DNA of 64,000 bases from Candidatus Binataceae bacterium (GTDB lineage: Bacteria; Desulfobacterota; Binatia; Binatales; Binataceae): the NCBI GenBank assembly GCA_035308025.1, contig DATGHL010000004.1:2678-66677 (forward strand), read 5' to 3'. The notes beneath the pieces were generated by a model that worked only from the letters and a program-made list of their open reading frames with translations, was not told the DNA's origin and ran no database searches. The translations under genes were made by a program, and so were the position numbers. Below, piece after piece: positions 28,912 through 39,655 of the stretch (its first letter is position 1; every line of letters begins with the position of its first letter).

Positions 28912-31596
28912 ATGCCCGCAGACCGCAAACTTTCCCGCTATCAGGCCAAGCGCGACTTCAACCAAACCGCCGAACCCAGCGGCGAAAATGCCGTCTCGCC
29001 CTCTCAGGTCCGCCGCTTCGTCATTCAGAAACACGCGGCCACCAGCCTGCACTATGATTTCCGTCTCGAACTCGACGGCGTGTTCAAGTCGTGGGCCGTC
29101 ACCAAAGGGCCTTCGGTCGATCCGCATGATAAACGCCTCGCGGTCGAGGTCGAAGATCATCCGCTCGATTACGGCGACTTCGAAGGGACTATTCCGAAGG
29201 GACAATATGGCGGCGGCTCGGTGCAGTTGTGGGATCGCGGCTATTGGCTGCCGCAAGAAAGTGATCCCGCCGCCGCAATCGATCACGGCGAACTGAAGTT
29301 CGCGCTCGAAGGTGAACGGCTGCACGGCGAATGGGTGCTCGTGCGGATCAAAAATCGCCGGCCAGGCGACAAAAAAAACAACTGGCTGCTGATCAAGCAT
29401 CGCGACGCCTTCGCGCGTGACGATGAGAGCCGTGCCCTCTTAGCCGAGGATCGCTCGATCGCCTCGGGCCGTTCGATGGCGGAGATCGCTGCCGGCAAAG
29501 GCGACGGCCCCCGGCCGTTTATGCTCGCCGCCAAGCTAAACGCGGCGCCCGACGCTGTCTGGAACTCAGACCGCGGCGCCGCCGCAGAACTGCGTGCATC
29601 CGCGGCGCCCAATGTAAGGTTCTCAACGATCCCGACGGCGGCATCGAGCAAACCTGACCTTCGCGGTTCCGAGCCGATGCCGGAGTTCATTGCGCCCGAG
29701 TTATGCAAAGTAATCGAGCGGCCACCTTCAGGTCTCGATTGGGTTCACGAAGTCAAGCTCGACGGCTATCGGATTCAGGCGCGGGTCGAAGAGAGTCGGG
29801 TGGTGCTACGCACTCGGAGAGGTCTCGATTGGACTAGCAAGTTCAGTGCAATTGCGCACGCTGCGGCCCGTCTGCCTGAAGGAATCTACGATGGTGAGGT
29901 AGTAGCCCTCAACCAGAAAGGCGCGCCGGACTTTGGTGCATTGCAGAATGCCCTTGCCGAGGGCAAAACCGGCGAGCTGATCTATTTTATTTTCGACTTG
30001 ATATTCCTCGAGGGCAACAACCTGCAACAGATTTCACTGCGCGAGCGCAAGACGACCTTGAAACGCATCATCGAAACTCTCGAGGGCGATTCGCCCATCC
30101 GCTACGTCGAACATTTCGATGCGTCAGGCGAATCGGTGTTAGAAACCGCTCGAGAAATGTCACTCGAAGGTATCGTCTCGAAGCGTTTGGGCGAGATCTA
30201 TCGTCCCGGCCAACGCGACTGGACTAAGACGAAGTGCCGCGCCGGCCAGGAAGTCGTGCTCGGCGGATGGACGAGCGAAGGCGGCCGCTTCCGTTCTCTG
30301 CTTGCAGGAGTCTACCACGACAAACATCTCACCTATGCCGGACGGATCGGCACCGGCTTCGGCGAAGACGTGGTCAGGCAGATTCTTCCGCGGCTCAAAG
30401 AACTCACGACTGCGCGGAACCCATTCGAGGGTCAGAACGCACCGCGCAGTCAAAGCGGTATACATTGGCTGAAGCCCGAGTTAGTTGCGCAAATCGAGTT
30501 CGCCGGGTGGACCGCCGAGGGCATCGTGCGGGCAGGCGCGTTCAAAGGACTGCGCGAAGACAAACCCGCGTCTGAAGTGATTGCCGAACGCTCGGCGCCT
30601 GTACAGGAAGCAGACGCCGCCAAGCCCGTGCCTAAAACGAAAAGCTCAAACACCTTCGCATCGCCCAAACTCAAGACCGGCGCCAGCGCCAGCGTGATGG
30701 GTGTTGCGATTTCTCACCCGGACAAAGCGATGTGGCCCGATGCTGGTGACGGAAAGCCCGTAACCAAGCTCGACCTCGCGAATTACTACGAGGCTGTCGG
30801 CGACAGCCTCATTGAATACATAAATGGGCGTCCGTGCTCGATCGTGCGCGCACCTGACGGAATCCACAGCGAACATTTTTTTCAGCGCCATGCGATGCCG
30901 GGAATGTCCCAGTTGCTCTCTCTCGTGAGAGTCTCCGATGATCATCAGCCATACCTGCAGATCGATTCGGTCGAAGGACTGATCGCTCTTGCCCAGCTCG
31001 GCGCGCTGGAACTGCATCCGTGGAATTGCGCTGCGGGCGCGCCCGAGGAGCCGGGCCGCCTCGTCTTTGACCTCGACCCGGCGCCGGACCTCGATTTTCG
31101 CGCCGTCATCGAGTGCGCGCGCGAACTCCGTGAGCGCCTCAACTCTCTCGGCTTGACGAGCTTTTGTAAAACCACTGGCGGCAAAGGACTGCACGTCGTG
31201 TCGCCGCTCTCGCCTGGAAAAAAGGGTAAGCTTGATTGGCCGGTGGCGAAGGCCTTCGCTCGCGAAGTCGTCGCGCAAATGGCTGCCGACAGCCCGGCCC
31301 GCTACCTCATCACGATGGCTAAGAAAGACCGGCACGGTAAAGTTTTTCTTGACTATCTGCGCAACGATCGTATGGCGACAGCCGTTGCCGTTCTTTCGCC
31401 ACGTGCACGTGCGGGCGCGCCGGTTTCAATGCCGCTCGACTGGAGTCAAGTCAGAACGGGACTCGAGCCCACGCGTTTCACCGTCCGCACCGCTCTTTCG
31501 CTGCTCGCCAAGAGCGATCCGTGGAAGGATTATAGTAAGTCGGGGCGCTCATTGGAGAACGCAATCAAGCTCTTAGGGCAAAACACAATCGACTGA
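28912..31596 (+). CDS. ligD: DNA ligase D (phosphoesterase - ligase - polymerase/primase)
   Basis: PE domain '[22 protein letters not shown]', adenylation motif I '[13 protein letters not shown]', polymerase-domain motif '[11 protein letters not shown]'. Confidence 0.9.
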
Positions 31597-31662: not shown

Positions 31663-32235
31663 ATGAACGCGGAACAATACATTGACCTGAGTTGCCATCC
31701 GTCGAAACCCGCTGAGTCGGTCCGCACTGTTCAGGTGCTCGTTCGCCGATCAACCAACGCCGAACTTCAGATGACCTTCCGCGTCGACGGCGATATTGAT
31801 CGGATTCGCATTCCTTCGTCCAGCGCACCGCGTATCGCTACCCAACTCTGGCAACACACCTGCTTCGAAGCTTTCGCCGCGATCGCGGGACAACCGGCCT
31901 ACCACGAGTTTAATTTCGCTCCGTCGGGAGAGTGGGCCGTCTATGCCTTCTCCGCCTATCGCAACGGCAGCCTTCTTGAGAACCAAAACCTGCGGCCGCA
32001 GATCGCTGTGCGCGCCACTGGCAGTCGGCTTGAACTCACAAGCCTTGTCCGACTCGATGCCCTACCTGCCTTCCACCCGCGTGTTTCCCTCCATCTCGGG
32101 CTCTCCGCGGTCATCGAGGCGAGCGACGGGCTCTCGTATTGGGCGCTTCGCCATCCAGCCGATAAACCGGACTTTCACGACGCCGCCGGCTTCGCCCTGC
32201 TGCTCGACCCACAAGCACAAATAACCGACGCCTGA
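31663..32235 (+). CDS. hypothetical protein (possibly DOMON/CBM9-like beta-sandwich)
   Basis: 190 aa. 'WQHTCFEAF...YHEFNFAPSGEW.VYAF..YRNG' weakly recalls DOMON/CBM9-like proteins. GC-rich like the core genome. Confidence 0.3.
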   Translation: MNAEQYIDLSCHPSKPAESVRTVQVLVRRSTNAELQMTFRVDGDIDRIRIPSSSAPRIATQLWQHTCFEAFAAIAGQPAYHEFNFAPSGEWAVYAFSAYRNGSLLENQNLRPQIAVRATGSRLELTSLVRLDALPAFHPRVSLHLGLSAVIEASDGLSYWALRHPADKPDFHDAAGFALLLDPQAQITDA

Positions 32236-32269: not shown

Positions 32270-32998
32270 ATGGAACCGAACCGGCCACAAGGTCTTAGCC
32301 GGCGGCGTGTCCGGCAACTCCTATCGAACACGCAGTCTTACCATTCAGCCGCCAGCCGCATTGAGGTTCTATCCCGCCACTTCCTTGGACATCCCTACAA
32401 GCCAAATCCCTTGATTGGATCCGCCGATGAATCGGAAGTCTTCACCGCTTCATTAGACGGATTCGACTGTGTCACCTATATTGAGACAATTTTGGCGCTC
32501 GCACGCGCTGCGACCGTTGATGACTTCATCGAAGGGCTGCGCAAGATCCGGTATCAACACGGACGCATCCAGTGGGAACAGCGCAATCACTATATGACGT
32601 TCTGGATTCGTAACAACGTGCGCGAAGGGATAATCAGCCCGGTCGCGACGCCGGCTATTCCGGTACTCAGCCGGGAGCGCCTTCTCAATGTCGTACCCGG
32701 ACTCGCTTCAAAGCTGACTCGCGTGAAATGTGTACCAAAGCTGGAAGTGATGCGGCGCGCAGCCTACCTGCGCAGCGGTGATCTGATTTTCTTTGCCTCC
32801 ACACGCAAACATCTTGATGTGTTTCATACCGGCATCATCGTAAGCGATGGCAAATATCCACTCATGCGTCACGCTTCGCGCAGCCAGGGATTTGTCGTTG
32901 AACAGAACTTGAGTGAGTTTCTTAAGGCCAATCGGATGGCCGGTGTCATCGTGGTGCGGCCTCGGGAGATTAAGAAGCGAATTGCAATTACTAATTAG
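32270..32998 (+). CDS. DUF1460-like protein (predicted papain-fold / amidase-like Cys hydrolase)
   Basis: 'FDCVTYIETILALARA' with a conserved Cys, characteristic of DUF1460. First gene of the low-GC island. Confidence 0.45.
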   Translation: MEPNRPQGLSRRRVRQLLSNTQSYHSAASRIEVLSRHFLGHPYKPNPLIGSADESEVFTASLDGFDCVTYIETILALARAATVDDFIEGLRKIRYQHGRIQWEQRNHYMTFWIRNNVREGIISPVATPAIPVLSRERLLNVVPGLASKLTRVKCVPKLEVMRRAAYLRSGDLIFFASTRKHLDVFHTGIIVSDGKYPLMRHASRSQGFVVEQNLSEFLKANRMAGVIVVRPREIKKRIAITN

Positions 32999-33064: not shown

Positions 33065-34339
33065 GTGAACATCGTATATCCGCTCGACTATTCAACCGCG
33101 AGTATTCGAGAATTATTCGATGACGCCGATTCCGATGTCCTTTTTTTGCGGGATCCGCGTGTAGACATCGAACTCGGACCGCGCATGCTCGAGCGAATAA
33201 CGCAGGTGATCCGTGACACCGGCAGCGGCTGGGTTTATGCCGACGGAGTAAGCCAACCCCGTATCGATTATCAAACCGGCAGCATCCGCGACGGTTTTGA
33301 CTTCGGCCCGCTAGTTGGTGTCTCGGTTCAAGCCGCGCGTAACGCCGGGATCGATAGCGCCTGGCGATGGGGAGGACTATACGACCTGCGCCTAAGACTT
33401 TCGGAAACACACGCTATCGTGCGAATTCCCGAACCGTTGTACAGCCAGTCGATCGTTGACGCACGGCCGACGGGGGAGAAACAATTCGATTATGTAGATC
33501 CGCGCAATCGCGACTACCAAATTGAAATGGAGACTATCGCGACGGCGCATCTGAAGCGAATCGGCGCCTGGTTACCGCCCCACTTCGAGAGAGTTCCAGC
33601 CGCTGAGGAGGCCTTTCCGGTAAAGGCCAGCGTCGTAATACCAGTGCGGAATCGCGAGCGGACAATTCTCGACGCCGTTCAGAGCGCCCTCGGCCAGCGC
33701 GCTGATTTCGAGTTCAATGTGCTCGTCGTCGATAACCATTCGACCGATCGGACAACGGAGCTTTTGCGAGGCATCAGTGATTCGCGGATTAGACGCATCA
33801 TCCCCGAACGCCGCGATTTGGGCATCGGCGGATGCTGGAACGAGGCGATTTATTCCAAAGACTGCGGCCAATACGTTATTCAGCTTGATTCCGACGATCT
33901 ATACATCAATGAAAACGTTCTTCGCCGGATCGTCGGACAACTTGAAGCGGGACCTTACGCAATGGTTATAGGCTCTTATACTATGGTTGATTTTTCATTG
34001 AGGGAGATTCCGCCTGGGCTTATCAACCATGGCGAGTGGAGTCGCGAGAACGGCAGAAACAATGCGCTCCGGGTTAATGGGCTTGGCGCGCCCCGCGCAT
34101 TTAACACTTCGGTTCTGCGCCGTATCGGATTTCCGAATGTGAGCTATGGCGAGGATTACGCCGTGGCGCTGCGCCTGAGCCGTGATTACGAGATAGGCCG
34201 GATCTACGACTCCGTTTATCTTTGCCGCCGATGGGAAGGCAATAGCGATAGCGCCCTGCCGGTCGAGATTGCGAATCGATACGATTCGTACAAGGACTGG
34301 CTCCGCACCGTCGAGATCCAGGCGCGGATGCGCAGATGA
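33065..34339 (+). CDS. family 2 glycosyltransferase with about 190-aa N-terminal domain of unknown function
   Basis: GT-A signature 'ASVVIPVRNRERTILDAVQSALGQ....FNVLVVDNHSTDRT' and a DxD motif 'QLDSDDLY'. Stop overlaps the next gene's start. Confidence 0.7.
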   Translation: MNIVYPLDYSTASIRELFDDADSDVLFLRDPRVDIELGPRMLERITQVIRDTGSGWVYADGVSQPRIDYQTGSIRDGFDFGPLVGVSVQAARNAGIDSAWRWGGLYDLRLRLSETHAIVRIPEPLYSQSIVDARPTGEKQFDYVDPRNRDYQIEMETIATAHLKRIGAWLPPHFERVPAAEEAFPVKASVVIPVRNRERTILDAVQSALGQRADFEFNVLVVDNHSTDRTTELLRGISDSRIRRIIPERRDLGIGGCWNEAIYSKDCGQYVIQLDSDDLYINENVLRRIVGQLEAGPYAMVIGSYTMVDFSLREIPPGLINHGEWSRENGRNNALRVNGLGAPRAFNTSVLRRIGFPNVSYGEDYAVALRLSRDYEIGRIYDSVYLCRRWEGNSDSALPVEIANRYDSYKDWLRTVEIQARMRR

Positions 34340-35229
34340 TCCGCAAAGTGGACGAACTCTTTAAGCGGCAGGTGCGAGCATGGCCGCTGCTGGCGCGAGG
34401 ACTGCAAGGCCTTGCGCAGGCGAAGACCCGGTGGGTGCGCATCGACTGGTTCGACATCTTCATCCTACACATACCCCATCGCCTGGGCAGTACAACAGCT
34501 TCTGTCAACCGCGACGCAGTCGCAAAACGTCCATGTTTTCTATGTGCATGCAATCTGCCTCCAGAGGAAGAGGGCGTGGAGTTTGATGACGAGCTCACGA
34601 TCTACTGTAATCCGTTCCCGATCGTGGACCGTCACCTGACGATCGCGCACCGCGAGCATGTTTTGCAGCGCATCGCGAACCAATTCGGAAAAATGCTGGA
34701 CCTCGCCGCCGCCCTGCCCGGATATTTCGTCATCTACAATGGTCCAGAATGCGGAGCCTCCGCGCCAGACCACATGCACTTTCAGGCGGGCGCCCGAACA
34801 TTACTTCCGATCGCGAAGGAGACTGCCGGGCACGCTACTATTAGTGCACCGCGCTATGCAACAAATGTACTGCTACTTCGTGGCCGCGATCGATCTGTAC
34901 TTATCGATCAAATGGATCGCGCTATCGAGTTACTGGCGGAAACAACCGGCAAACAAGCGGAGCCCTTGGTCAACATCGCAGTCTTTCATGAAAGCGGTGA
35001 ATGGGTGATGTATCTGTTCCCGCGCGGAAAGCATCGGCCAGAGGTTTTTCATACGGGCGAACTTACCGTGAGCCCCGCGGCGATTGATTTGTGCGGAATC
35101 TTTGTCGTGCCGCTGGCACGCGATTTCGAGAGAATCACTAGCGAGGCGATAGCTGCAATCTTGCGCGAGGTCACTTTGCCTGACGCTCAGTTTCAGGAAA
35201 TTGTCGCGAAACTGGAGGGACGGCATTGA
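34336..35229 (+). CDS. HIT-superfamily-like nucleotidyltransferase/phosphorylase (DUF4922 / GDP-hexose phosphorylase-like, HxHxQ motif)
   Basis: 'PDHMHFQAG' is an H-phi-H-phi-Q HIT/GalT-type motif. There is an upstream Cys-rich segment 'CFLCACNLPP'. Translationally coupled to the GT2 (ATGA overlap) and to the SpoIID gene. Confidence 0.45.
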   Translation: MIRKVDELFKRQVRAWPLLARGLQGLAQAKTRWVRIDWFDIFILHIPHRLGSTTASVNRDAVAKRPCFLCACNLPPEEEGVEFDDELTIYCNPFPIVDRHLTIAHREHVLQRIANQFGKMLDLAAALPGYFVIYNGPECGASAPDHMHFQAGARTLLPIAKETAGHATISAPRYATNVLLLRGRDRSVLIDQMDRAIELLAETTGKQAEPLVNIAVFHESGEWVMYLFPRGKHRPEVFHTGELTVSPAAIDLCGIFVVPLARDFERITSEAIAAILREVTLPDAQFQEIVAKLEGRH

Positions 35230-36666: not shown

Positions 36667-37401
36667 TTGCGCGAATACGAGCTCAATTGCTCGATGTATC
36701 TATACGCGAGCAGGGCTGATGCGAATCGGGGCGTACAGACTGGCGGAAGCGGATTCTTCTTCGGGATTCCGATGAACGAGTACTCCAGCCATATCTACGC
36801 CGTTAGTAATTGGCACGTCGTGCAAAGCCATCCGGTCATTCGCGTAAACACACATTACGGGGATTCACTTGTCTTAGAATTAAGAACCAGCGATTGGTTT
36901 CGGCATCCAGACGGTGAGACCGACCTCGCCGTTGCACCTGTGGGGCATCCATTCTGGGCAGACCTTAATGTGCTTCTTCTTGGTCGTGAAACCCTTCTTT
37001 CTCCGGAGATCATCTCTCGATTTAAGATCGGTGTCGGCGACGACTTGTTTGTCGTTGGTCGCTTCATAGATCGTGATGGCGTACAGCGCAATCAACCAAC
37101 AGTTCGATTTGGCATGATCGCGCAACTACCAATCCCTCACCAACCAATCCGAACCGAGGTTGGATACCAGGATGCTTTTCTAGCCGAAATTCGATCTGTC
37201 TCAGGATTTAGCGGGTCTCCGATATTCGCACTACTACCGCCCCATCGCGACACCTCCCTTTCCAGAGAGGAACGGCTCAAAGCCTTTAGCGATCTGGACG
37301 ATAACGGCTTACAGCGAAACAGAACGGTTCTCATGGGAATTGACTGCGGGCATATGCAATATCCAGAACCGGATGCTGTTTTCGCAGAAAGTGCGCGATG
37401 A
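36667..37401 (+). CDS. trypsin-like serine peptidase (S1/chymotrypsin fold, Trypsin_2-like)
   Basis: Catalytic triad context: 'SNWHVV' (His), 'GETDLAV' (Asp), 'SGFSGSPIF' (Ser). No signal peptide is evident. Confidence 0.55.
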   Translation: MREYELNCSMYLYASRADANRGVQTGGSGFFFGIPMNEYSSHIYAVSNWHVVQSHPVIRVNTHYGDSLVLELRTSDWFRHPDGETDLAVAPVGHPFWADLNVLLLGRETLLSPEIISRFKIGVGDDLFVVGRFIDRDGVQRNQPTVRFGMIAQLPIPHQPIRTEVGYQDAFLAEIRSVSGFSGSPIFALLPPHRDTSLSREERLKAFSDLDDNGLQRNRTVLMGIDCGHMQYPEPDAVFAESAR

Positions 37402-37456: not shown

Positions 37457-37714
37457 ATGGCTATCGTGATCGGCGCATGGAAGCTGGACGAGTTGCTCAA
37501 CAACCCAGTGTTGGTAGAAATGCGAGAAAAAGAAAAAGCCGCGGCAAAGAAATACACAAAGCTGGATTCATCCACCCGGCCCCGCTTGCAAAAAACGTTA
37601 GCTCCGAACGCTGCGGATCGGATTGATATTCCTATTCCGACTGAACGCGAGGTGTTGGACGTATTTAAGAAAGCCACGCGGAAGCGGCCATCTAGGCAGA
37701 AACCTTCTTCGTGA
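37457..37714 (+). CDS. small hypothetical protein (basic C-terminus); 3' end truncated by or overlapping the IS1595 end
   Basis: ORF 37340..37714 in another frame, overlapping the protease stop. Internal Met at 37457. Confidence 0.2.
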   Translation: MAIVIGAWKLDELLNNPVLVEMREKEKAAAKKYTKLDSSTRPRLQKTLAPNAADRIDIPIPTEREVLDVFKKATRKRPSRQKPSS

Positions 37715-38660
37715 TCTGCTTCGTGAGCGCGTCGAACATATTGTGTCGTCCAAGGTTCGGTCGGCGATTGAACCGAAAAGCGTACTCGTTCAGATAGCTT
37801 TGCGGATAATGCGAACCGACATTGTGATAGACACCACGAATCCCGTTTTTTATGAGGCTCCAGAAGCCCTCCATGGTGTTCACGTGTGCATCGCCCGAGA
37901 CATAGACCTTGGTCGCAAGATGGACGCGCTTGTGCTGTAGCCAAGTGGCTCCAGCGGATTATAGACCGCGTATTCGTCGGTAAAGACCATGCTCTTCGGC
38001 ATTATTCGCTCAGTCACGTGCGGAAGCAGGGTTGCAGCTTGGGTGGTTCGGAACGACCTTTGCCACAACTCTGCCCTTGCGCTCTACCATGCCGAAGACG
38101 GCGGTCTTGCCGACCCCGCCGGTGCCGAGATGTTTCCGCTTGTTGGCGTGTTTGTTCTTTTCCAACCCGCCGAATGCGCTTTCGTCCATCTCAATCTTGC
38201 CAGACAGTTTTGGCCCGTCATCTTCATTCAGCATCGAACGAATCTGTTTGCACATACGCCACGCGCATTTGTAGGTAACGCCGATTTCCCGCTCAAGCTG
38301 CTTGGCGCTAATCCCGCATCGAGTAGAGGCCATCAAGTACATGGCGTAAAACCAGAGTTTCAGCGAAGTAGCCGAATCCTGAAAGATCGTCCCGCTCATT
38401 GGGTGTTCGTGATGACCGCAATTCTGGCACGAGTAGGAAGGTCGCTTGCTGTCGCGATGATGCTTTGTGACGGCTTTGCATTTGGGGCAGAAGATGCCAT
38501 CGGGATAGAGCCATTCGACGAGTTTCTGAAGACAAGCTGCATCGTCTGGATAATTTCGCTCGAAATCCATGAGCGAGTAAGTACTGTCGGACGCCCCGGA
38601 ACGTATCGGCTTATTGCGGTTGACCTTGCTCATGTCGAACATAGTACTAAAGGCGCGCAC
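37692..38660 (-). mobile_element. IS1595-family insertion sequence with frameshifted transposase
   Basis: ORF 38010..38660 has an N-terminal zinc ribbon 'CPKCKAVTKHH...CQNCGHHE' and a DDE region. Continuation 'VFTDEYAVYNPL' (37880..38068) and C-terminus 'FWSLIK...NEYAFRFNRR' (37692..37883) are each in a different frame. Confidence 0.7.
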
Positions 38661-39563: not shown

Positions 39564-39655
39564 TGGCGGAGAGGGGGGGATTCGAACCCCCGAGACCCTT
39601 GCGAGCCTACACGCGTTCCAGGCGTGCGCCTTAAACCGGGCTCGGCCACCTCTCC
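39564..39655 (-). tRNA. tRNA-Ser (anticodon GGA), type II with long variable arm, CCA encoded
   Basis: Reverse complement reads GGAGAGG-UG-GCCGAGCCCGGUUUAAGGC-G-CACGC-CUGGAAC-GCGUG-UAGGCUCGCAAGGGUCUC-GGGGG-UUCGAAU-CCCCC-CCUCUCC-G-CCA. All stems pair and the discriminator is G. The 3' end faces the low-GC island. Confidence 0.9.

Follow-up and report, generated by a model that had tools for sequence, protein, structure and literature searches.

We report that a 297-amino-acid protein encoded in a 64,000-nucleotide stretch of a Candidatus Binataceae bacterium genome (hereafter the window, meaning the whole stretch that was analysed) is a bacterial relative of the guanosine diphosphate (GDP)-sugar phosphorylases VTC2 and GDPGP1. 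It carries a DUF4922 domain, and together with a family 2 glycosyltransferase (GT2) and a SpoIID-like protein it makes up a widely conserved three-enzyme module that extends far beyond Candidatus Binataceae. On balance, we favour a role for it as a cytoplasmic nucleotidyltransferase or phosphorylase of the GalT branch of the HIT superfamily that interconverts a nucleoside diphosphate (NDP)-amino-sugar and a sugar-1-phosphate in the salvage of peptidoglycan fragments. We place great confidence in the family and the type of mechanism, and consider a part in peptidoglycan salvage likely.

The DUF4922 protein belongs with VTC2 and GDPGP1

A Pfam scan of the protein returned PF16269 (DUF4922) at E=2.2e-49, with 167.6 bits against a cut-off of 23.6 and a match to profile positions 1-145 of 146, well out of reach of chance. 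The precomputed annotation of the exact protein also lists PF26216 (GDPGP1_C) without a weak mark; our own hmmscan (E<=10) did not return PF26216, a model that the Pfam copy scanned may lack. The DUF4922 assignment was already known, an identical protein having been deposited under the name 'DUF4922 domain-containing protein [Candidatus Binataceae bacterium]', and the superfamily placement follows from existing models. In a database clustered at 90% identity we found 4833 homologues at E<=1e-3. Clustered at 50% identity, the family counts 1516 clusters, of which 606 reach E<=1e-30.

DUF4922 has been reported in GDPGP1/mcp-1 and in plant GGP genes; GDPGP1 turns GDP-glucose into glucose-1-phosphate plus GDP, and VTC2 is its plant counterpart. 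The window protein shares with VTC2/GGP of plants and GDPGP1/mcp-1 of animals the DUF4922 domain, an HxHxQ motif and the expected chemistry, in which an NDP-hexose and inorganic phosphate (Pi) give a hexose-1-phosphate and NDP. It differs from them in being bacterial and shorter (297 amino acids), in standing in an operon with GT2, SpoIID-like and AmiA-like genes, and in having a context that points to peptidoglycan amino sugars rather than GDP-hexoses.

The comparison with solved structures starts from A1, in which the window protein is aligned to 51 representatives that are 32-51% identical (52 sequences). While a search of the Protein Data Bank (PDB) with the single DUF4922 sequence gave no match, the A1 family profile matched yeast Apa2 at E=4.5e-6, with DHlHfQ in register with DHKHLQ. 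Apa2 chains were the only significant PDB sequence-profile matches, and neither the single-sequence nor the profile search returned a solved GDPGP1 or VTC2 chain. An AlphaFold2 model built from A1 (predicted local distance difference test score, pLDDT, 95.1; predicted template modelling score, pTM, 0.93) has the two-lobed, tandem HIT-like alpha/beta fold of the GalT branch. Its best Foldseek match in the PDB was Apa2 (E=6e-11, template modelling score 0.55-0.65), followed by further full-length matches to human GALT (5in3, E=4.5e-4), Arabidopsis ADP-glucose phosphorylase (2h39, E=2.5e-3) and E. coli GalT (1hxq), whereas small HINT proteins match a single lobe.

Motif, fold and profile thus agree on the GalT branch of the HIT superfamily, and the match to the GalT/VTC2/DUF4922 clan that a first-pass annotation of the window had anticipated was found in the Pfam, precomputed, Apa2 profile and fold results alike. 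Judged by profile scores, the protein falls outside the GalT and Apa families proper. NCBIfam GalT models gave 16-21 bits against cut-offs of 721-1021 (the best, 20.8 against 865), and hhalign with E. coli GalT produced a local alignment confined to the motif at a probability of 7%, which speaks to residue correspondence and not to family membership; we therefore do not count the protein as a GalT family member. PF19327 (Ap4A_phos_N) stayed at 13.4 bits (E=0.056), where its cut-off is 23.1. The labels 'glycosyltransferase' and 'Ap4A phosphorylase II' are better replaced by 'GDPGP1-family nucleotidyltransferase/phosphorylase'.

Invariant residues fit a predicted nucleophilic histidine and a probable structural zinc site

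The positions invariant in A1 are L26, R49, C67, L69, C70, N92, P93, P95, H100, H108, Q111, S142, P144, H146, H148, Q150, N213, R230, R234, P235, S246 and P247. In a second set of 25 further metagenomic loci, 21 key residues were again invariant (19 of the A1 invariants, the Cys pair and H233, itself nearly invariant). The HxHxQ motif, which the first-pass annotation had called diagnostic, is therefore conserved at H146, H148 and Q150 throughout the 52 and the 25 sequences.

Two comparisons bear on which histidine would be catalytic, a point that the same annotation had marked for checking. Apa2 chain 4i5v reads DHKALQ where 4i5t reads DHKHLQ; the alanine replaces the second His, and the substituted residue therefore corresponds to H148. 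In the hhalign alignment, GASAPDHMHFQ pairs with GCSNP-HPHGQ of E. coli GalT, so that H146 aligns with H164, H148 with H166 and Q150 with Q168, and GalT S161 is likewise in register, giving an S-x-P-x-H-x-H-x-Q pattern. With H148 aligned to both the second His of Apa2 and H166 of GalT, the central His does sit at the nucleophile position, and we predict that H148 is the nucleotidyl-accepting nucleophile and H146 a fourth zinc ligand.

In GalT and At5g18200 a structural zinc site is built from a CxxC, a more distant His and the leading His of HxH; in GalT these are C52, C55, H115 and H164, and the CxxC + His + His pattern here resembles that site. C67, C70, H100 or H108, and H146 probably hold a structural zinc, as predicted from these conserved positions. 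Of the upstream Cys cluster CFLCAC pointed out earlier, the CxxC formed by C67 and C70 is invariant, but C72, its third Cys, is not conserved. The window protein shares with GalT/GALT and Arabidopsis At5g18200 the fold and the extended motif, and departs from GalT in its NCBIfam scores and motif-only hhalign alignment. With yeast Apa2 (4i5t, 4i5v, 4i5w) it shares the best structural and profile match and an HxHxQ in register, but identity is 14-17%, Ap4A_phos_N stays below threshold, the window context is glycan-related, and the Apa2 alignment starts after the CxxC.

GT2, DUF4922 and SpoIID-like genes form a conserved, apparently cytoplasmic triad

We next asked how far the gene neighbourhood is kept. 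Scanning genome contigs with the single protein returned Binataceae-like loci only; the wider loci came from a metagenome scan with A1 and gene look-ups. Loci below 60% identity are referred to as other lineages. Among Binataceae-like loci, GT2 lies upstream in 36/36, the SpoIID-like gene downstream in 37/37, and an AmiA-like gene is present in 34/35. The order unknown190 - AmiA-like - GT2 - DUF4922 - SpoIID-like was found in all 28 Binataceae loci with enough upstream flank, with the 190-amino-acid gene kept at the cluster start across loci L001-L030. Of the loci from other lineages, 31 of 36 have GT2 immediately upstream and 29 of 39 have the SpoIID-like gene downstream; where both flanks are available, 21 of 27 loci have both neighbours and three have neither.

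Natural fusions join the same partners: GT2::DUF4922 (~800 amino acids) and DUF4922::SpoIID (490-824 amino acids), in addition to GNAT::DUF4922 (~500 amino acids). One subclade (L063, L082, L099) has DUF4922 together with GHL10, SSF, Golvesin_C and NamZ genes and lacks GT2, SpoIID and AmpG, so DUF4922 is not a mere accessory of GT2. The functional coupling to GT2 and SpoIID proposed in the first-pass annotation is supported by overlapping codons, synteny and natural fusions.

SpoIID-type lytic transglycosylases normally act outside the membrane. Hydropathy analysis nevertheless revealed no export signal in the SpoIID-like protein of the window, in those of 18 diverse loci or in the DUF4922::SpoIID fusions, and no signal peptide or transmembrane segment in any of the five window cluster proteins. 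As controls from the same loci, NamZ and the Golvesin_C protein showed clear signal peptides and AmpG showed transmembrane helices. Because the cluster proteins lack export signals, the triad appears to work in the cytoplasm, as far as hydropathy can indicate. Such a site suits a partner that depends on nucleotides, although for an enzyme of the SpoIID/LytB type it is uncommon.

Triad loci lie in peptidoglycan-salvage neighbourhoods

The main clue to the substrate, overlooked in the first-pass annotation, is the peptidoglycan-salvage context. In Bacteroidota loci the triad sits inside one co-directional cluster for N-acetylmuramic acid (MurNAc) and muropeptides, with an AmpG-like major facilitator superfamily (MFS) protein, NamZ, an SSF (MurT-like) transporter, a BadF/G (MurK-like) kinase and a SIS (MurQ-like) protein. 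A Bacteroides assembly (L121) illustrates the arrangement, reading NamZ - SSF transporter - Golvesin_C protein - Metallophos/PQQ - GT2 - DUF4922 - SpoIID and continuing with MFS (AmpG-like) - NamZ - FAD-oxidase/FeS - HGSNAT - BadF/G kinase - SIS protein. YkfC-like and AmiA-like proteins and Peptidase_M15_4 are further neighbours in Bacteroidota loci. A YkfC-like NlpC/P60 protein belongs to the neighbourhood in L082, an AmiA-like gene adjoins a GNAT::DUF4922 fusion in L118, and the contig of another such fusion (L115) carries Peptidase_M15_4 and an AmgK-like kinase, the latter ~6 kb upstream. A second AmgK-like kinase directly follows the DUF4922::SpoIID fusion of L116. For both kinases the best NCBIfam matches are two AmgK models (E 1e-10 to 2e-16), below the equivalog cut-off. 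In L096 (5441-6875, + strand) DUF4922 and the SpoIID-like gene are separated by an insertion that encodes a double-GNAT protein and a GDSL/SGNH esterase, which hints at handling of de-N-acetylated or O-acetylated muropeptides. Every informative neighbourhood that we found is peptidoglycan- or MurNAc-related.

Two other genes recur in triad-bearing Bacteroidota MurNAc clusters. One encodes a ~950-amino-acid protein with FAD-oxidase, 4Fe-4S and CCG domains (L121, 16345-19179, + strand; cluster 10 in L100, L103, L104 and L107), possibly a D-lactate dehydrogenase that deals with the lactyl group set free from MurNAc; the other encodes an HGSNAT-like membrane acetyltransferase.

The Bacteroidota gene order (Golvesin_C - GT2 - DUF4922 - SpoIID - AmpG - NamZ ... 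MurT/K/Q-like) is the published order of the Tannerella forsythia ampG operon. That operon runs from Tanf_08345 ('xanthan lyase') through 08350 ('gtf'), 08355 ('gtf'), 08360 (lytB) and 08365 (ampG, functional) to 08370 (ybbC, now NamZ1), followed by murT, murK and murQ (PMC5388701), and Tanf_08345-08385 was described there as a co-transcribed, GppX-regulated muropeptide/MurNAc operon. Tanf_08350 and Tanf_08355 have been called putative glycosyltransferases, with their function stated to be unknown (10.1101/2021.12.02.470905). By its place in the gene order, Tanf_08355 is probably the DUF4922 orthologue. T. forsythia grows on N-acetylglucosamine (GlcNAc)-1,6-anhydro-MurNAc (anhMurNAc) imported by AmpG, without AnmK, and the later steps were stated to be open (PMC7670621); the triad is a candidate for this gap. 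The literature that we searched on T. forsythia (to 2024) and on peptidoglycan recycling (to 2026) assigns the triad no function. The likeness to Tanf_08350-08360 ('gtf', 'gtf', 'lytB') lies in the gene order of the Bacteroidota loci; the Binataceae cluster differs in having an AmiA-like gene instead of AmpG and NamZ.

A proposed role in MurNAc and GlcNAc salvage

From the behaviour of the family, His148 would attack the alpha-phosphate of an NDP-sugar, the sugar-1-phosphate would leave, and a covalent His148-nucleoside monophosphate (NMP) intermediate would form, stabilised by Gln150. The NMP could then be passed to Pi, making the enzyme a phosphorylase (NDP-sugar + Pi <-> sugar-1-phosphate + NDP), or alternatively to a second sugar-1-phosphate in a GalT-type exchange. 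Genomic context suggests that DUF4922 would be the central enzyme of a cytoplasmic GT2 - DUF4922 - SpoIID-like module in MurNAc/GlcNAc salvage, with an AmiA-like muramoyl-L-alanine amidase, likewise cytoplasmic, joining it in this organism. Context leads us to infer a peptidoglycan amino sugar: what the triad loci, the triad-less loci and those with AmgK-like neighbours would have in common is an amino-sugar-alpha-1-phosphate, of MurNAc or GlcNAc, together with its NDP derivative. The likeliest substrate pair would be an NDP-amino-sugar and the matching alpha-1-phosphate; that the former is specifically uridine diphosphate (UDP)-MurNAc or UDP-GlcNAc is a tentative suggestion drawn from context.

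GT2 would use or generate the same NDP-sugar as DUF4922. Running in reverse, with DUF4922 pulling, it could allow phosphorolysis of a beta-linked disaccharide with catalytic UDP. Such phosphorolysis would be thermodynamically similar to that of ordinary disaccharide phosphorylases. We further speculate, with little confidence, that the triad is an undescribed cytoplasmic route, sparing adenosine triphosphate (ATP), for AmpG-imported GlcNAc-(anh)MurNAc, and so would supply the AnmK-independent step that is missing for Tannerella, Bacteroides and further bacteria. In this scheme the SpoIID-like enzyme would form or open MurNAc's 1,6-anhydro bond. GT2, an inverting enzyme, would have a beta-linked MurNAc/GlcNAc disaccharide on one side of its reaction and an alpha-linked UDP-amino-sugar on the other, and DUF4922 would pull or feed the system via UDP-sugar + Pi <-> sugar-alpha-1-phosphate + UDP. 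The net result would be a two-carrier 'phosphorylase' yielding MurNAc-1-phosphate or UDP-MurNAc without ATP cost.

A functional analogy may exist with the AmgK-MurU route of Pseudomonas and Tannerella (MurNAc -> MurNAc-alpha-1-phosphate -> UDP-MurNAc), another interconversion of nucleotide-sugar and sugar-1-phosphate in salvage, and AmgK-like kinase genes do occur beside or near DUF4922 fusions. MurU belongs to an unrelated nucleoside triphosphate-transferase family, uses uridine triphosphate and releases pyrophosphate. An enzyme of the HIT/GalT branch would work with Pi or NDP instead, or else with another NDP-sugar, and we have no evidence of orthology between the two.

Several points weigh against the salvage reading. 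Characterised members of the family act on GDP-hexoses, and the closest solved structure is an Ap4A (diadenosine tetraphosphate) phosphorylase. Nucleotide and sugar specificity cannot be read from the sequence, and the literature searched holds no biochemical data on any bacterial DUF4922 protein. No AmpG, NamZ or AmgK homologue was found in the window, so in this organism the link to peptidoglycan rests only on the AmiA-like and SpoIID-like neighbours. For T. forsythia, gene order is the sole basis for equating Tanf_08355 with DUF4922. T. forsythia is also reported to make UDP-MurNAc by AmgK and MurU (PMC7670621), and a MurU-like role would therefore be redundant there.

These considerations leave some room for the idea, which builds on the unusual GT2 donor suggested in the first-pass annotation, that the protein serves GT2 only, supplying or proofreading an unusual NDP-hexose donor such as GDP- or ADP-hexose for a non-peptidoglycan glycoconjugate, with the SpoIID-like and AmiA-like neighbours recruited for another glycan. 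The GDP-hexose phosphorylase activity of characterised DUF4922 proteins, the GT2::DUF4922 fusions, the frequency of GT2 immediately upstream in non-Binataceae loci and the lack of AmpG and NamZ in the window all speak for it. Feeding GT2 cannot be the whole story, however, because one subclade has DUF4922 without GT2 or SpoIID: its three loci keep DUF4922 with NamZ, SSF and YkfC-like genes. The informative neighbourhoods are, moreover, uniformly peptidoglycan- or MurNAc-related, and the SpoIID-like and AmiA-like catalytic motifs are intact. We consider donor supply alone unlikely.

An Apa1/Apa2-like enzyme, acting as a dinucleoside-polyphosphate phosphorylase or ATP adenylyltransferase on Ap4A or adenosine 5'-phosphosulfate (APS), is more doubtful still. 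Yeast Apa2 provides the closest solved structure and the sole significant PDB profile matches, several database copies, including some JGI records, are named 'ATP adenylyltransferase/Ap4A phosphorylase II', and there is the weak Ap4A_phos_N match. That match is nonetheless sub-threshold and dwarfed by the DUF4922 score; as no GDPGP1/VTC2 chain appeared in the PDB searches, Apa2 may be merely the nearest solved relative, and coupling or fusion to a glycosyltransferase and a glycan-cleaving enzyme suits a sugar substrate better. A non-catalytic scaffold or regulator retaining the HIT fold, considered only because two enzymes are fused to the protein or lie next to it, and with nothing specific in its favour, is highly improbable given that the expected catalytic and metal-binding residues are invariant in >75 sequences at 30-50% identity.

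Layout of the cluster and its surroundings

The five genes of the Binataceae cluster and the sites within the DUF4922 protein are collected in Table 1. The DUF4922 ATG (34336-34338) overlaps the GT2 TGA (34337-34339) as ATGA, and its own TGA (35227-35229) overlaps the TTG start of the SpoIID-like gene (35226-35228) as TTGA. The first-pass annotation had described this 297-amino-acid reading frame with PDHMHFQAG, overlapping at its start and stop with GT2 and SpoIID genes; coordinates and overlaps agree with ours, and the nature of both flanking genes holds on the profile matches given below. The DUF4922 and SpoIID boundaries are identical in an independent gene call on the public contig. Within PDHMHFQAG, H146 is encoded at nucleotides 34771-34773, H148 at 34777-34779 and Q150 at 34783-34785; within CFLCAC, C67 is at 34534-34536, C70 at 34543-34545 and C72 at 34549-34551.

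Table 1. Genes of the cluster and sites in the DUF4922 protein (window coordinates)
Feature	Coordinates	Strand	Basis
DUF4922/GDPGP1-family protein, GalT branch of HIT superfamily, 297 aa	34336..35229	+	PF16269 match, AlphaFold2 model, Foldseek
HxHxQ motif H146-M147-H148-F149-Q150	34771..34785	+	invariance, Apa2 and GalT alignment
CxxC (C67, C70), predicted structural zinc site with H100 or H108 and H146	34534..34545	+	invariance
GT2 glycosyltransferase, 424 aa, conserved extra N-terminal domain (~residues 1-185)	33065..34339	+	Glycos_transf_2
SpoIID/LytB-family protein, 406 aa, without signal peptide or transmembrane segment	35226..36446	+	TIGR02669, PF08486
AmiA-like (DUF1460) NlpC/P60 amidase homologue, 242 aa, without signal peptide	32270..32998	+	PF07313
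190-aa protein without family match, first of five cluster genes in Binataceae	31663..32235	+	conserved position

GT2 matches Glycos_transf_2 at residues 189-336 (E=6e-20). Its conservation is unusual: homologues from different phyla are 48-63% identical over residues ~8-423, the extra N-terminal domain included, and mean column identity is ~58-60%. The public gene call gives 384 amino acids, starting 40 codons later than the GTG at 33065; the N-terminal conservation led us to favour the long GTG start. Its AlphaFold2 model has a pLDDT of 65.9, falling to very low values in loops that are among the most conserved (residues 67-79, 131-149 and 315-342), and because of this a full-length fold resemblance to tandem GT-A polymerases such as K4CP is only a weak hint that the N-terminal domain may be a second, degenerate GT-A domain.

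The SpoIID-like protein matches PF08486 (E=1.7e-23) and TIGR02669 (SpoIID/LytB, E=4.5e-51) and keeps the catalytic 'SEM' glutamate and the GHGVG motif in alignment with SpoIID 4rwr. The AmiA-like protein matches PF07313 (E=6.6e-39) and also AmiA of B. uniformis (4h4j), with which it shares both catalytic residues, the DC(V/T)T Cys and the His; the public gene call gives 168 amino acids, and homology spans residues ~7-233 of the 242-amino-acid open reading frame (ORF). The 190-amino-acid protein has no Pfam or NCBIfam match and was not found in the non-Binataceae lineages examined. Promoter and terminator scans within the cluster returned chance-level results only. A reading of the cluster as anti-phage defence was discarded, PADLOC giving no match for any of the five proteins.

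Directly upstream lies a full-length LigD gene (LigD_N, ligase, primase-polymerase; 894 amino acids; 28912-31596, + strand), and downstream of the SpoIID-like gene a trypsin-like 244-amino-acid ORF (36667-37401, + strand; Trypsin_2 below threshold), which is not conserved in related loci and apparently unrelated to the cluster. Neither is a conserved neighbour, and both were therefore left out of the module. An IS1595-family transposase, made up of a 216-amino-acid ORF and a 63-amino-acid fragment and publicly annotated with Zn_ribbon_IS1595 and DDE_Tnp_IS1595, and a tRNA-Ser(GGA) gene ~1 kb away lie at 37692-38660 and 39564-39655, both on the - strand.

Implications

The chemistry of DUF4922 is itself probably ordinary. 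The literature that we searched does not describe the conserved, fused and apparently cytoplasmic GT2 - DUF4922 - SpoIID-like module, the way it is systematically placed within clusters for MurNAc/muropeptide salvage, or the re-reading of a T. forsythia 'gtf' as a HIT nucleotidyltransferase. How AmpG-imported GlcNAc-anhMurNAc or GlcNAc-MurNAc is processed without AnmK, for example in the MurNAc auxotroph T. forsythia and probably in gut Bacteroides, is a stated open question (PMC7670621), and of the three genes that lie directly upstream of ampG in the T. forsythia operon, two carry no label beyond putative glycosyltransferase. The HIT identity of the middle gene, together with recognition of the triad, makes the question of Bacteroidota salvage directly testable, with relevance for how gut and oral Bacteroidota release peptidoglycan fragments. 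If true, the role proposed here would be the first function for a large bacterial wing of the GDPGP1/VTC2 family, comprising ~1500 clusters at 50% identity.

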